DNA from: a virus
Lineage: Duplodnaviria > Heunggongvirae > Uroviricota > Caudoviricetes
Direction: 5' to 3' (one strand)
Length of the DNA stretch: 10,130 nt
IMG/VR virus record: IMGVR_UViG_2713896788_000013
Shown here: in pieces, positions 3,001 through 9,000 of the stretch
Layout: the number at the start of each line of letters is the position of its first letter
Position numbering within the stretch: the first letter of the stretch is position 1
Program-made: the position numbers

Positions 3001-6000
3001 ATGGATTTGCCCCACTCTCCGAAATCAGCGCAACAAACTCAGCCAGGTCCGGGGGCCACGTTTCACCCGCCCGGCAGCGGTCCATGCACTGACGGCACAC
3101 CAGACGGATTTGCTGTTCAGTCATCGCACCAATCTGGGCAATCCAGAGCTTCGAAGGTGCGGCCCCGTTCTTCTGAGTCCAGCGGTTCGAATACACCTCC
3201 CCCATGAGCTCCCACAGCTTCCAGGCCGTTTCCGTTGCTGATAAATCCGTTGTCACGTTCCCACTGTTCGCGTGCAGCCCGGATTTCCTGAACTGCCCGT
3301 GATGCCGTGCCACCTGATGCTGCATGGCTTCCCCCCTTGCTGACTGGTTTTACCTGTGCCCTGACGTGCTGCACGTGGCGGGCAAATTTCTGCTCCCACT
3401 GAACCTGCGTGAAAACCTTCCCCTCCGCCATCCAGTAATCCCGGAATGCGGCAAGCTCAGCAGGTGTAAATTCCGGCTCAGGCAGAGCCATACCCCACAC
3501 TGCTGCCCGTTGTCGAAAATCCGGCGACGGCTGCCAGACAGTAGTCATCGAAAATTTCCCGATCGGTTCGCTCAGGCCGTCCAGGTATTCAGGTTCGGCT
3601 GTCTGCAACGGCGCACCATTCGACTCACTGGTCGGAATACTCTCGCGCGCGTTATGTGTGGGGTTTAATTCTGTATCTGTATCTTTATCTGTATCTTTAT
3701 CTGTCGTGACTTGTCGTGACAGATGCGTGACACGTCGTGACTCATCGTGACAATCAGCATTATGTTTCCGCAGCTTTTCCCGCTCCCGCTGCGCTCTCTT
3801 GCGCTCTGCCGGGGATTTTGCCGTTTGCGAAACGTTACCATTGTCCTCTTTCAGCACCTGACGTTTTTCCCATCCGGAAATAAGGTCACCATCCAGAACC
3901 CGCCCCTGCATTGCATGCAAAATTGAATCAATTACGTCTTCCGTCACATCAAGCGCACTTGCTAAATCTTCCGTCGTGACATCAATGTGACCACGTAGTG
4001 ACACGCCGTGACATGTCGTGACATTTCGTGACGCGCTCACCAGAAGATGGATATACACTGCCATCACTGTTGCGATTGGCTGTCCTGATACCCTGGCAAT
4101 CGTTCGCCACTTGGGGTCATTTGGCATGTCATGCCACAATCTGAGCCAGGCATTAGCCATACTCACCTCTTCTGATACCGAACTTTACCCTCGAACATCC
4201 GGAAGAAATCCGGCATGAATATTGTTGGTCAATNNNNNNNNNNNNNNNNNNNNNNNNNNNNNNNNNNNNNNNNNNNNNNNNNNNNNNNNNNNNNNNNNNN
4301 NNNNNNNNNGGCCACCAGCAGAGGCGGCATTGCCTTTTCGATCGCCGGTAACAGAGCCTGCATTTTTTCAACTGCATCAGGGGTGTCTTTCTCTATCCAG
4401 CGGAAAATTTTCTGGGTATTGCGAGCCAGGGCTTCCGGATGGCTGTCGTCGTACAGTTCAGGAAACGTCATACCCAACTCAAAATAAGCCTGGGTTATTC
4501 CAGCTGCCGGAACTTTTTCGCCATCAGGACGCGCCCAGGCATTCATCGCCATGCGGATGTGTTCATGCTTGATTTTCATGAATCCCCCCTTGGTTAGAAG
4601 GCGGATTATGATCAGAATCGGGAATGACAACCGTCGGTATGTGTAACTCATATTTGAGCGCCCCGGCAGTGACTGCCTGAATTAGCAACGCCCATTTCCA
4701 CGGAACGTCTTCCCCCCACATGCTGACTGTGGTTTTTGACGTTCCTAGAGCGGCGGCTGTTTTAACAACTCCGCCAAAATAGCCTAATACTTCTGATTTT
4801 TTCATGAGTCGCTCCATAAAACTGAACGCCAAAAGTTTAATAATCAAAACCAAAGAAAGTCAAGAAACAAAACCATCTGTGTTTTAAAATCAAAACATGA
4901 ACAAGCAAACAATATCTGAACGCATAACCCAACGTATGCATGCGCTAAACTTGAAAGGCAAAGACCTTGTCAATGCCACTGGCGCATCAAAAGGCTCCGT
5001 AAGTCAATGGATGAACGGTGGAGGAGCGCCGTCCTCGCGTTACATAAGTTCACTGGCAAAGATATTGAAAGTAAACGAAAATTGGCTTCTTAATGGAGGA
5101 GAGTTAAATACAGGTGATTCGCTTGATCTATCTTTACCGCCGATAAAAACGGTTCCGCTACTATCACTTCAGCAGGCAGCAAGCTGGAGTGATTATATGA
5201 AAAATTCCTCAATAACCTCTTGTGTGCAGCTTGTCGGAGAAATCCCGGCCAATACCTTTGCTGTTGTTCTAGAGAGTGACAGTATGTCGACATCTGGTGG
5301 TGGAGTTTCCATCCCAAATGGTTCAACAGTTTTTGTTGATCCCGATCGAATCGTACAACCAGGAAATATTGTCCTTGCCTTACCCAAAGGGACCACAACG
5401 CCTGTCATTCGCAAACTGGAGATAGAAGGGCCGGATATTCTTTTAGTCCCCACGAATCCTCGCTACCCTTCAATTATGCTGGATGATCTATCTTGCATAT
5501 TGGGAGTATGCTTTAAAATTCAACAAGATATTTAACCAACCTCATCTATTTGATTAACTGTATGCCATCGTAGTGATGGCGTAACAGCTGCCTGCTTAAA
5601 ATGTTTTGATAAAAAAACATTGACCTTAAATGTTCGTTTTTCTAAACTTCATTCATTCCCTCACCCCGCCCCACAGAATGCAGGGCAATACTTCGAGTTA
5701 CCAGGCAGTGGTCAGGGGTTAAGTAGCCAGCCCGAGGCGTAAGAACATGACGGCAGGGTTCAACTTTAATAACTATGCAGCAGGTTTTTGTTCCGCTACC
5801 CCGGCGTTAAGGGGAAATGAGGTCAACATGGATACGCTCAATCTTGGCAACAACGAATCTCTGGTATGTGGCGTGTTCCCCAACCAGGACGGTACGTTCA
5901 CCGCGATGACGTATACCAAAAGCAAAACGTTTAAAACTGAAGCTGGCGCGCGTCGCTGGTTAGCCAGAAACACTGACTGATGAGGTTGACGATGGAATTT

Positions 6001-9000
6001 AAAGATTTACCTCCTTCAATCCAGGAGATTGCAGCACACACACTTCGTCATCGTCTGAACGAACTTGAATTGGAATCGGTAACGAAAAAAGACACTGATA
6101 ATATGGCTCGTAATGTGCGCGATGCGTTTACCGGATTGTATTTCTGTGCGTCTATAAATAAACACGACTCAGAGAGTGTGGCAAATAAAATTGCAGAAAC
6201 GACAGCGCAAAACATCAATACGAAACCAACGGAAGAAGAAATTGATCAGTTTGCTCATGATGCTGGTTTAAAAAACAAGAAAGAAAAATCGCCATATGCG
6301 GGGAACATGTTTGTTTATGACAATCTCATCAGAATTCGTGGCGAAATTCCGGCGGAATACCTGGCAAGAGTCCATCAGGCATTGCTTAAAAATTTGGAAA
6401 CAGAATTATTTGATGGCAACACTAACGGTTTCTTCATGGTATCAGGCCTTGAGAAAGACTGGGATGCAGAAAAACGCTGGAATGTTGCTACATGGTTATT
6501 CAGTAACAGAGCCGCTGCACTGGAAGCTTCGGCATGTATTTGCGGCCTGTTCTTAACAGACCACAAATATAATCTGGATGTGTACAGTTATATTTACGCT
6601 GAACACGGTCCACTCTGGATTGACTGGTAATTATAAGGAAACACCAGCAGGGCCGCGGCGACCAACAGAACGATTAAAATCAATAATGCCATTATAAAGG
6701 ACATTATTTAATTTATCGTCGAATGCTGATTCTGTGAGCCTCAACTCTGAATGAGTTTTTAATAACCCTGATTGCCTGAGTTGATTTACCAGGCATTCAA
6801 TCTGTTTTTCAATAAGCGGATTTCTTTTTTTGTTTGGCATTTTATCCTCCATTGAGGTTCTGGGTTAAAAATGGAGACCAACACGCTGTCACGTGTGGTC
6901 GTGCGCCGGACACGGATAAGAATCCGGTACTGACAGTTTACTGAAAGGATATTTCCCTGAAAAGTCAGTGCATAACGCGAAAGCGTACGGCGAAGCTCTT
7001 TCCCTTAGAAGGCTTGTCGTTAGATTTCTTCGAACGTGCGCTTCCGGTTGTGGCACTCCGCGAAATGGCGCGGCGGTAAGTATGGCGGGGTTATTCCTTC
7101 CCCATTGAGGACACCGGGTTGTCAGGTTGACCATACGCTTAAGTGACAACCCCGCTGCAACGCCCTCNNNNNNNNNNNNNNNNNNNNNNNNNNNNNNNNN
7201 NNNNNNNNNNNNNNNNNCGCTGCAACGCCCTCTGTTATCAATTTTCTGGTGACGTTTGGCGGTATCAGTTTTACTCCGTGGCTGCTCTGCCGCCCTTTTT
7301 AAAGTGAATTTTGTGATGCGGTGAATGCGGCTAAGCGCACGCGGAACAGTTAAAACCAAAAACAGTGTTATGGGTGGATTCTCTGTATCCGGCGTTAATT
7401 GTTAACTGGTTAACGTCACCTGGAGGCACCAGGCACTGCATCACAAAATTCATTGTTGAGGACGCGATAATGGAAACGTTATTACCAAACGTTAATACGT
7501 CTGAAGGTTGTTTTGATATTGGTGTTCTGCTCAGTAACCGGGAGTTTACTGAAGATGCCATTAACATGAGGAAATATGAGCCTTATCTGCTCAATGATAA
7601 TTCCATACTTTCCCGAATTGCTCTTCTTGAACTTGGTATTTTCGGAGAACGTCAATGACTTCAGCATTTGCACTGATGATGACGGTTTTTCTTATAACGG
7701 GTGAATCACAGAATGTGATTACCGGAATTTATGCCAGTAAAGAATCCTGCCTCCAGGCAAGAGACGAGCAAAAAATTTCTGGTGAATGCCTCCCGGTAAA
7801 AAAAGTATCGCTGTACCTGAATAACGAAACACCGGCTGGATAACCCTCCAGCCATATTAACACCATACCAACGGATTAAAAATGCCAGCAATGGCAGGGA
7901 TTTGTTCACCCTTAAATCTGTAATGAGGTTTATCAATGAGCACTGATAAAGAAGAATTTGCGCTATATTGCGAAGCAAAAAATGACAAAGTCAGAAAACG
8001 TCTGGGAATTAAAGGTGGTTTTTACTGGACTACAGCAAAAAAATTATCTGTTGCCATCTCCCGCTGCATTACCGCAATGGATGACAACGATTATGATGAA
8101 GACGACTTTAAAAAACCCGTTCGCGTCCATTTACCCGTTGTGAATGACCTTCCACCTGAAGGCGTGTTTGATACCGAATTCTGCAACCGATACGAAAAAG
8201 GCGGGGAAGATGGCATTACAATGGTATTTATCGCGCCCTCTCCCTCCGTGCAGGAGAAACCAGCCAGTACTGACAATACCAACGTCAACGGCGAAGACAT
8301 GACGGAGATTGAGGAGAATATGCTCCTGCCGGTTTCTGGTCAGGAGCTGCCCATTCGCTGGCTTGCGCAACACGGCAGCGAAAAACCAGTAACGCACGTT
8401 GCACGGGAAGAACTTCAGGCATTACATATAGCACGGGCGGAAGAACTGCCGGCTGTTACTGCCTTGGCCATTTCTCACAAAACAAAGCTGCTCGACCCGC
8501 TGGAGATTCGCGACCTTCACAAACTGGTACGCGACACTGACAAAGTTTTCCCTAATCCCGGTAATTCAGACCTGGGACTGATAACTGCTTTTTTCGAGGC
8601 ATACCTGGACGCTGACTACACTGATCGGGGTCTGCTGACAAAAGAGTGGATGAAAGGAAATCGTGTTTCGCGTATCACCCGTACGGCTTCCGGTGCAAAT
8701 GCCGGTGGCGGGAACAAAACCGATCGCAATCCGAATTTAGTACACACCTTCGATACGCTGGATGTGGAGATTGCAGCAGCCACACTTCCGATGGATTTTA
8801 ATATTTATGAAATTCCGGGCAGCGTTTATCGTCGCGCAAAAGAAATCGTCCTGAAAAGAGAAAGTCCGTTCAAAGAATGGTCCGCAGCACTTCGCGCAAC
8901 CCCGGGTATTCTGGACTATTCCCGCGCCGCTATTTTTGCACTTATCCGGAGCGCTCACCCTGAGTTTTATCACTACCCGGGACGCCTTCAGGGGTATATC

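Follow-up and report, generated by a model that had tools for sequence, protein, structure and literature searches.

Promoter-proximal part of a dicBF-type early-left operon, with a convergent gene pair, in a Qin/Rac-family prophage of enterohaemorrhagic Escherichia coli

Introduction

The subject of this study is a small cassette of genes, at positions 5600-6630, in a Caudoviricetes DNA of 10,130 nucleotides (nt) (IMG/VR record IMGVR_UViG_2713896788_000013), the whole of which is called the window below. Its closest described relative is the dicBF operon of the Qin prophage in Escherichia coli K-12, arranged as dicA - dicBp - ydfA ydfB ydfC - dicF - dicB - ydfD - ydfE. The polycistronic ydfABC-dicF-dicB-ydfD mRNA of Qin begins at dicBp, upstream of ydfA (PMC10448788; PMC5069750), and experiments have established that dicBp is repressed 22-fold by DicA (PMC10448788). 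A second relative is the early-left region of the Rac prophage, racR - pL - ydaG - ydaF, with a convergent sieB gene that encodes a membrane exclusion protein of 162 amino acids (aa). Both the dicBF operon type and the DUF1391 family of small proteins are already known, and no function of DUF1391 was reported in the literature searched.

In phage lambda, the interval from cI to oL/pL holds rexA and rexB, which lysogens transcribe together with cI; of the two products, RexB is a polytopic membrane protein. An initial annotation of the window had assigned the cassette to this rex-equivalent position, as a candidate two-gene exclusion or abortive-infection module expressed together with cI. Its open reading frames (ORFs), promoter-like site and palindrome are real, with several details corrected here, and a convergent gene had been overlooked. 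The interpretation is partly supported, in that the slot is a hotspot whose cargo belongs to no family of known function, while the rex and lysogen logic is replaced by that of a repressed early operon.

Results and Discussion

An operator-bearing promoter separates the repressor gene from the cassette

In this prophage of enterohaemorrhagic E. coli (EHEC), a defective lambdoid member of the Qin/Rac family, positions 5600-6630 form the promoter-proximal part of an early-left operon of the 'dicBF type'. An operator-bearing promoter follows the repressor gene, a DUF1391 gene is promoter-proximal, and DicF, dicB and ydfD come later on the same strand. The genes have the order and orientation known from Qin, with flanks of 88-95% identical DNA, the promoter directly after the repressor gene, and DicF, dicB, ydfD and recE/int remnants further on. 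The window differs from Qin in its repressor, which is a full-length LexA-family protein with helix-turn-helix (HTH) and S24 parts whereas Qin has the short DicA, and in its operators. A leader of ~110 nt is also inserted after the promoter, and a 212-aa gene with a convergent 69-aa gene takes the place of ydfB and ydfC. The regulatory features are as follows.

4834..4851: weaker operator copy with 3 mismatches at the cro-side promoter, whose -10 (TAAACT, minus strand, 4839-4834) it overlaps
4880..4897: exact operator palindrome TGTTTTAAAATCAAAACA between cro and cI, whose final base is the A of the cI ATG; it includes TAAAAT at 4885-4890
4897..5535, plus strand: cI-like repressor of 212 aa, HTH and S24 peptidase, LexA family (PF00717, E 8e-13; HTH_3), with an identical ORF in E. 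coli strain TR01
5602..5619: exact operator palindrome TGTTTTGATAAAAAAACA, oL-type and AT-rich, adjoining the -35 of the cassette promoter
5620..5648, plus strand: sigma-70-like promoter, equivalent of pL and dicBp (TTGACC 5620-5625, 17-nt spacer, TAAACT 5643-5648)
5631-5648: weaker operator copy with 4 mismatches, over the spacer and -10 of the cassette promoter

The pattern TGTTTT-N6-AAAACA has exactly two copies in the window, at 4880-4897 and 5602-5619, and exact copies were obtained in 0 of 200 shuffles. The extended arms of the second copy (AATGTTTT/AAAACATT) run 2 nt into the -35, which agrees with the AT-rich palindrome previously described over this promoter. The TTGACC/TAAACT site itself is also present as described, but the promoter pattern alone stands at chance level, with 5 sites in the window against 5.1 expected from shuffles; the site owes its significance to the operator and to an alignment with Rac pL rather than to the promoter match alone. 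In that alignment the cassette promoter corresponds base for base to the region downstream of racR (pL, -35 TTGAC). Rac carries a different palindrome, TAGGC-N3-GCCTA, which flanks the pL -35 and is found elsewhere only in the racR/ydaS intergenic region (RacR-type, oR and oL regions). An exact palindrome shared by the cI/cro region and the cassette promoter, taken together with the Rac alignment, is the classic oR/oL layout and identifies the cassette promoter as the pL equivalent, like dicBp of Qin. From this arrangement, the cassette is expected to be silent in the lysogen and to be switched on at repressor loss.

The likeness to Rac extends to the immunity-specific palindromes around the -35, the leader and the DUF1391 gene, and in both prophages a gene on the opposite strand abuts the end of the forward genes, with a 4-nt overlap of sieB and ydaF in Rac and a 0-nt gap in the window. 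The reverse genes themselves are unrelated, since that of the window encodes a soluble 69-aa protein and not a membrane exclusion protein, and Rac has no homologue of the 212-aa protein.

Because the upstream operator finishes on the A of the cI ATG, with TAAAAT 7 nt upstream, a leaderless cI mRNA is suggested, which would be initiated, as in lambda, at a PRM-like promoter within the operator. The cleavage site of the repressor, read by eye, is seemingly Ala-Ala (QQAASW) rather than the usual Ala-Gly, which makes SOS inducibility uncertain. RefSeq annotates just the C-terminal 112 aa of this protein, though the 212-aa ORF with both HTH and S24 parts is intact.

The first gene of the operon belongs to the DUF1391 family

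5828..5980, plus strand: DUF1391 protein (YdfA/YdaF family), 50 aa, first operon gene, with a Shine-Dalgarno sequence GAGG at 5818-5821

A small ORF of 50-77 aa had been reported here, and it is present either at 5747-5980 (77 aa) or, from an internal start, at 5828-5980 (50 aa). The upstream ATG at 5747 is followed by just 18 codons in Rac and by 6 in another phage; this extension is not conserved as coding, so we take the small protein to be the 50-aa form. The statement that neither cassette protein matches a family was wrong for the small one, which is a DUF1391 protein (PF07151, E 1e-29, with the Pfam match beginning at residue 29 of the 77-aa form) and is 88% identical to YdfA of Qin and 84% to YdaF of Rac; it was right for the 212-aa protein, which has no named family. 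A non-significant match of DUF1391 to the lambda gpD/SHP head decoration protein (E 0.16, PDB sequence search) is probably why some phage records (H18, H19, H24) label this gene 'head-DNA stabilization protein D'.

All genome counts in this study were taken over 5426 complete E. coli genomes. The DUF1391 region was found in 4400 of them, whatever gene comes after it, and the N-less Qin/Rac-like prophage family is represented in 4400/5426 genomes, often with several copies in each.

A common N-domain is fused to a C-domain in the 212-aa protein

The genes that follow DUF1391 occupy a variable slot with the features listed here.

5972..6899: variable slot, replacing ydfB and ydfC of K-12 Qin between conserved flanks
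5992..6630, plus strand: 212-aa protein, PHROG 2151 ('Ybl81' in some sources), consisting of an N-domain, a linker with indels and a C-domain
5992-6216: helical N-domain, residues 1 to ~75
6277-6627: C-domain of ~115 aa, residues 96-212
6272..6927: mobile two-gene module made up of the C-domain, the 69-aa gene and the 5' region of the latter, with 83% nucleotide identity to Salmonella prophage L009 5569-4916
6631..6840, minus strand: convergent 69-aa gene, PHROG 4274 (the mechanical ORF extends to 6852)
6841..7010, minus strand: upstream region of the reverse gene, common to different reverse cargos, with a hairpin CCGGA-N-TCCGG

The start of the 212-aa protein at ATG 5992, which is the form in RefSeq and PHROG 2151, is located 11 nt past the upstream stop and behind a GAGG Shine-Dalgarno sequence. 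An alternative reading of 216 aa begins with the ATG of TGATG at 5980. The 212-aa length and the TGATG overlap given in the initial annotation thus each exist, but not together, as only the 216-aa reading overlaps the small ORF.

The protein is a fusion of two parts with distinct distributions. The N-domain is common to many small proteins with unrelated C-terminal tails, including proteins of Shiga toxin (Stx) phages. The N-terminal third of the 212-aa family is mosaic. The C-domain is nearly invariant in E. coli, and it is ~30% identical in a Salmonella protein of 220 aa whose N-terminus differs. A full-length AlphaFold2 (AF2) model was poor (pLDDT 64), and that of the C-domain was usable (pLDDT 79, pTM 0.73), with a predicted beta-beta-alpha-beta-beta-alpha-beta arrangement that would be a generic alpha/beta sandwich. 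The best PDB sequence match of the N-domain, to Noc, was not significant (E 0.04). YdfB, YdfC and YdaG were compared by eye with the 212-aa protein and no evident resemblance was seen.

Profile searches of the cassette proteins against Pfam, NCBIfam, PADLOC and PHROGs returned only DUF1391 and PHROGs without function. No Pfam, NCBIfam or PADLOC model matched the 212-aa protein, for which PHROG 2151, a family with no assigned function, is the sole match; the reverse ORF likewise matched PHROG 4274 only, and none of the other three collections. With PADLOC-DB 2.0, the DUF1391, 212-aa and 73-aa (mechanical reverse ORF) proteins gave 0 hits at E <= 0.1; a defence or exclusion role of the cassette is a possibility only. 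The 212-aa family is tiny, with 35 representatives among 1.84 billion proteins, all enterobacterial, and a deep search for the 69-aa family gave 42 clusters, all from Escherichia or Salmonella. No full-length homologue of either protein was found in 50,697 phage records, and a scan of genome contigs for the 69-aa family gave no match. The literature searched has no mention of the accessions or of 'Ybl81', and both the 212-aa/69-aa pair and the recurrent slot architecture of a forward gene facing a small reverse gene appear to be undescribed there.

In the Stx phage PA2, gp25 (L005 3501-3944) contains the N-domain, 42% identical over residues 1-86, and so do 73 other Stx/Escherichia phage records. 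In Stx-converting phages the N-domain gene is found at another place in the early-left region, its neighbours being a DUF2303 gene ahead of it and a PAPS-reductase-like gene behind it; no reverse partner is annotated in PA2, the single record inspected.

The C-domain is co-inherited with the convergent 69-aa gene

The 212-aa gene ends at 6630, and its stop directly abuts that of a minus-strand ORF at 6631-6852, with a gap of 0 nt. This is the convergent gene missed before. Its start is the second ATG (6840), behind GGAGG, and the 69-aa product is basic (pI 9.7), soluble by sequence without a membrane segment, and carries an invariant C-terminal GRRGPAGV-x-L. The 212-aa protein is acidic (pI 5.2), so that the charges of the pair are complementary.

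The C-domain and a homologue of the 69-aa protein recur as a pair in three prophage contexts of Escherichia and Salmonella. Apart from the Qin-like prophages of E. coli, to which the window belongs, they are found in Salmonella prophages with an int / HTH repressor / Cox-like module, where the 220-aa gene and the 69-aa homologue (49-52% identical) overlap tail to tail by 53 nt. In the third context (Salmonella L009-11), a C-domain-only ORF (79% identical) stands tail to tail with the 69-aa gene (78% identical), and the N-domain is a separate neighbouring gene. Among the E. coli genomes the C-domain was detected in 594 (741 places) and the 69-aa gene in 597 (744 places), the pair thus being carried by ~11% of them. 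Between the window and L009, the 69-aa gene has a dN/dS of 0.24 and the C-domain one of 0.22, both at a dS of ~0.6; the low ratios and equal dS indicate that both are real genes which diverged together under purifying selection. The C-domain and the 69-aa gene therefore form a mobile, co-inherited unit. DUF1391, which had been taken as the functional partner of the 212-aa protein, is not the partner of the C-domain, since it occurs independently of the gene behind it and the C-domain travels with the 69-aa gene.

The region 6841-7010 presumably holds the promoter of the reverse gene. The conserved stretch ahead of the reverse genes occurs in Qin as well, although Qin lacks a reverse ORF. It is located there within the DicF precursor, and the plus strand may therefore be what keeps it conserved.

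The slot is a hotspot for convergent modules

The earlier description of the slot as a hotspot was borne out in that its accessory genes are hypervariable. Its flanks at 5790-5971 and 6900-7167 match Qin DNA at 88-90%, and between such flanks Qin has ydfB/ydfC, Rac has sieB at the same site, and other prophages have other cargos. At least five other forward genes with the N-domain and different tails were found, each convergent on a different small reverse ORF.

mEp460_ev081 slot: forward 121 aa, reverse 66 aa
L014 slot: forward 179 aa, reverse 80 aa
L016 slot: forward 201 aa, reverse 63 aa
L017 slot: forward 153 aa, reverse ~91 aa
L009 second module: forward 119 aa, reverse 64 aa

The reverse ORFs share an upstream region, and several of them also have the same Shine-Dalgarno sequence and start, GGAGGATAAAATG. 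These alternative cargos have no Pfam match and no significant PADLOC match. The Salmonella prophage L009 carries two convergent modules in tandem, at 4302-4835 and 4916-5627, with the same start-region sequence (..RLTME.. = GAGGTTGACGATGGA) before both forward genes and the GGAGGATAAAATG start before both reverse genes. The two start sequences look like portable recombination joints.

A wider proposal, which we regard as speculative and rather unlikely, is that cassettes are exchanged in the interval from DUF1391 to DicF and that they form a new class of two-protein module. Each would combine a repressor-controlled early effector, with the common N-domain or as a free-standing C-domain, and a cognate small protein transcribed convergently in the lysogen. 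On this view the C-domain/69-aa pair would be an instance, acting as effector and antidote or in exclusion and self-immunity, and would have no relation to described families.

Comparison with described two-component systems

Several described systems were considered for the cassette and rejected. For the Rex system, no Pfam, NCBIfam or PADLOC match to RexA/RexB was obtained, and both cassette proteins are hydrophilic (grand average of hydropathy -0.5 to -0.6), with no RexB-like membrane protein. SieB-type exclusion has in common with the window only the position of sieB in Rac, as the 73-aa and 212-aa proteins match no Pfam family. Type II toxin-antitoxin systems do not fit either: the genes are convergent and not co-directional, no toxin or antitoxin family was matched, and the modelled fold is generic. 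The 69-aa protein was also compared with the Qin antirepressor Rem and is not similar to it.

Two analogies concern the arrangement. In pore-forming colicin/immunity pairs a LexA-family-repressed gene is convergent on a small opposite-strand gene with its own promoter; the slot may be likened to them in that an N-terminal part that is conserved is fused to C-terminal parts that vary, the small partner varying along with them. The difference is that no homology exists and that the window is a phage early operon, not a colicin plasmid. In the SieB/Esc system of P22 and in BstA/aba, a lysogen-expressed factor and a lytic-phase antagonist lie together in the early region, which offers a second possible parallel. 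Here also there is no homology, and Esc is an internal product of sieB and aba a DNA element, whereas the window has two separate convergent protein genes.

Interpretation of the convergent pair

We consider it probable that the locus as a whole is a repressed early-left operon start of dicBF type that carries the C-domain and 69-aa proteins as an antagonistic pair with split regulation. The narrower point, that these two proteins stand in some antagonistic relation of either polarity, is held tentatively and at a little below even weight; what it and passive linkage (below) leave goes to other roles. In the proposed mechanism, the forward C-domain protein would act early as an effector, with expression from pL alone once the repressor is gone, and the small basic 69-aa protein would be made in the lysogen from its own promoter and neutralise the effector. 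Such neutralisation would buffer leaky expression and blunt the same effector when it comes from superinfecting relatives, a logic analogous to that of an SOS-/LexA-repressed colicin gene with its opposite-strand immunity gene. Several points weigh against this mechanism. In the library and PDB searches, no resemblance of either protein to known families of toxins, antitoxins, immunity or defence proteins was seen, and adjacency inside a recombination cassette of ~650 bp could explain the co-inheritance without any relation between the proteins. The promoter-scan match at 6868-6839 is too near the start codon to serve the 69-aa ORF, and no promoter of that gene was located with confidence. In addition, the interval from cI to the cassette promoter has a hairpin without a U-tract and no strong terminator, and some read-through from cI in lysogens is possible.

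The last point is also what speaks for the rex-like model, in which DUF1391 and the 212-aa protein, expressed in lysogens along with cI, would be a two-gene cassette for abortive infection or exclusion. As with lambda rexA-rexB, the genes stand next to the repressor gene on the same strand. They are immediately downstream of it, with no strong terminator in between, and neither has an assigned function. In lambda, however, the rex genes precede oL/pL, and in the window oL/pL lies between cI and the genes; the operator-bearing promoter is positionally homologous to the repressed dicBp and to Rac pL, the layout being that of dicA-dicBp-ydfA in Qin. Moreover, DUF1391 is the universal first gene of this operon type independently of the 212-aa gene, PADLOC gave no match, and the partner of the 212-aa gene lies elsewhere. 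We regard this model as very improbable. Passive linkage deserves more weight, though we still judge it unlikely: the 212-aa protein would be an ordinary early accessory protein for host takeover or anti-defence and the 69-aa gene an unrelated moron, the two being co-inherited only through their place between the same two recombination joints, namely the conserved 5' end of the N-domain or the GAGGTTGACGATGGA start region on one side and the conserved region upstream of the reverse gene on the other. This would account for conserved flanks that are common to many different cargos and for an N-terminal third that is mosaic beside a constant C-domain, and promoter-proximal early genes of phages often encode anti-defence or takeover factors. 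It is harder to reconcile with a pair kept at 30% and 50% protein identity in a context that is not of the lambdoid type and has a different N-terminus, with a pair kept where the C-domain is split from the N-domain, and with genome counts of the two genes only 3 apart in 5426.

The polarity of the pair could also be the reverse, with a lysogen-made 69-aa protein that would block the lytic growth of incoming phages and a C-domain protein, produced first from pL, that would switch it off for growth of the prophage after induction. SieB/Esc of P22 and BstA/aba would be precedents by analogy, the reverse gene is placed where Rac has sieB and is transcribed in its own direction independently of pL, and the forward partner is promoter-proximal. 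The 69-aa protein is, however, tiny and soluble, lacks a membrane segment and was matched neither by Pfam SieB nor by PADLOC, and this polarity seems to us distinctly improbable.

Read as a repressed early operon, the locus corrects a tempting positional inference: in N-less Qin/Rac-like prophages, the repressor gene is followed by a gene of the repressed early operon rather than by a rex-type unit of the lysogen. It also assigns two EHEC prophage genes without characterised products to the predicted transcription unit of DicF and DicB, whose effects extend to cell division, metabolism and phage resistance and, according to published work, to EHEC virulence. The C-domain with its convergent 69-aa gene is a testable unit, and a hotspot of unannotated convergent pairs marks where new effector/antidote or exclusion functions of prophages might be sought.

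A conserved leader follows the promoter

5648..5760, plus strand: conserved non-coding leader of ~110 nt, directly after the pL-type promoter; an optional module, present in some relatives only

The leader is 87% identical to the racR-ydaG leader of Rac. Its covariance model (R1) scored 114.6 bits, with compensatory covariation in 5 of 20 predicted pairs; the single-sequence fold was no better than that of shuffles (z 0.6), and no Rfam family was matched. One copy each was found in Rac, phage Tritos, L016, Actinobacillus phage pPE4 and Serratia phage Kaonashi, and several E. coli phages carry the leader. It stands right after a dicA-like repressor gene in pPE4 and in the early region of Kaonashi, a T7-like phage, and it is absent from Qin, mEp460 and HK022. 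The leader could be an RNA polymerase- or processing-related element. Its likeness to HK022 putL is one of position and size, without detectable sequence similarity, and a put-type antiterminator RNA was rejected because R1 finds nothing in the PL region of HK022 and no second copy in the window.

Prophage setting and assembly

Apart from two N-runs, the window has 100% identity to a defective lambdoid prophage in strain TR01 of E. coli O157:H7, and the same prophage stretch is also present in O121, O145 and other EHEC genomes. Its gene order is divergent cro-like and cI-like repressor genes, DUF1391, variable slot, DicF, dicB, DUF1482/ydfD, recE remnant and int remnant; the order in the functional phages mEp460_ev081 and Tritos is identical to this layout. 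The remaining features are given below.

4234-4309: N-run, a scaffold gap that stands for 151 nt of TR01 sequence within a YdaT-family gene
7168-7217: N-run, an assembly gap and not biology; an insertion, just upstream of the multi-copy DicF
7244..7295, plus strand: DicF small RNA (sRNA), Rfam RF00039, 75 bits against a gathering score of 48, E 1.6e-15
7470..7658, plus strand: dicB, cell-division inhibitor of 62 aa, from the RefSeq annotation of the identical TR01 sequence
7655..7843, plus strand: DUF1482/YdfD-family protein, PF07358, E 3e-15
7936..9180, plus strand: remnant of RecE (exonuclease VIII)
9162-9713: integrase remnant, frameshifted, directly after recE

A total of 15 nt (cgctgcaacgccctc) is duplicated on either side of the 7168-7217 gap, and TR01 is continuous at both N-runs. 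The dicF-dicB region has 95.5% nucleotide identity to Qin. The recE gene is truncated, with 414 aa against 866 aa in Rac, and in TR01 the recE and integrase remnants are followed by insertion sequence elements and nleG7. These two remnants indicate that the prophage is defective, with its left arm largely deleted. The DicF region of the window (7257-7454) is 78% identical to Rac (L003) 7250-7454, which holds the annotated sRNA kilS upstream of kilR, and on the basis of this identity the kilS/kilR segment and the Qin-type dicF/dicB segment look like homologous modules.

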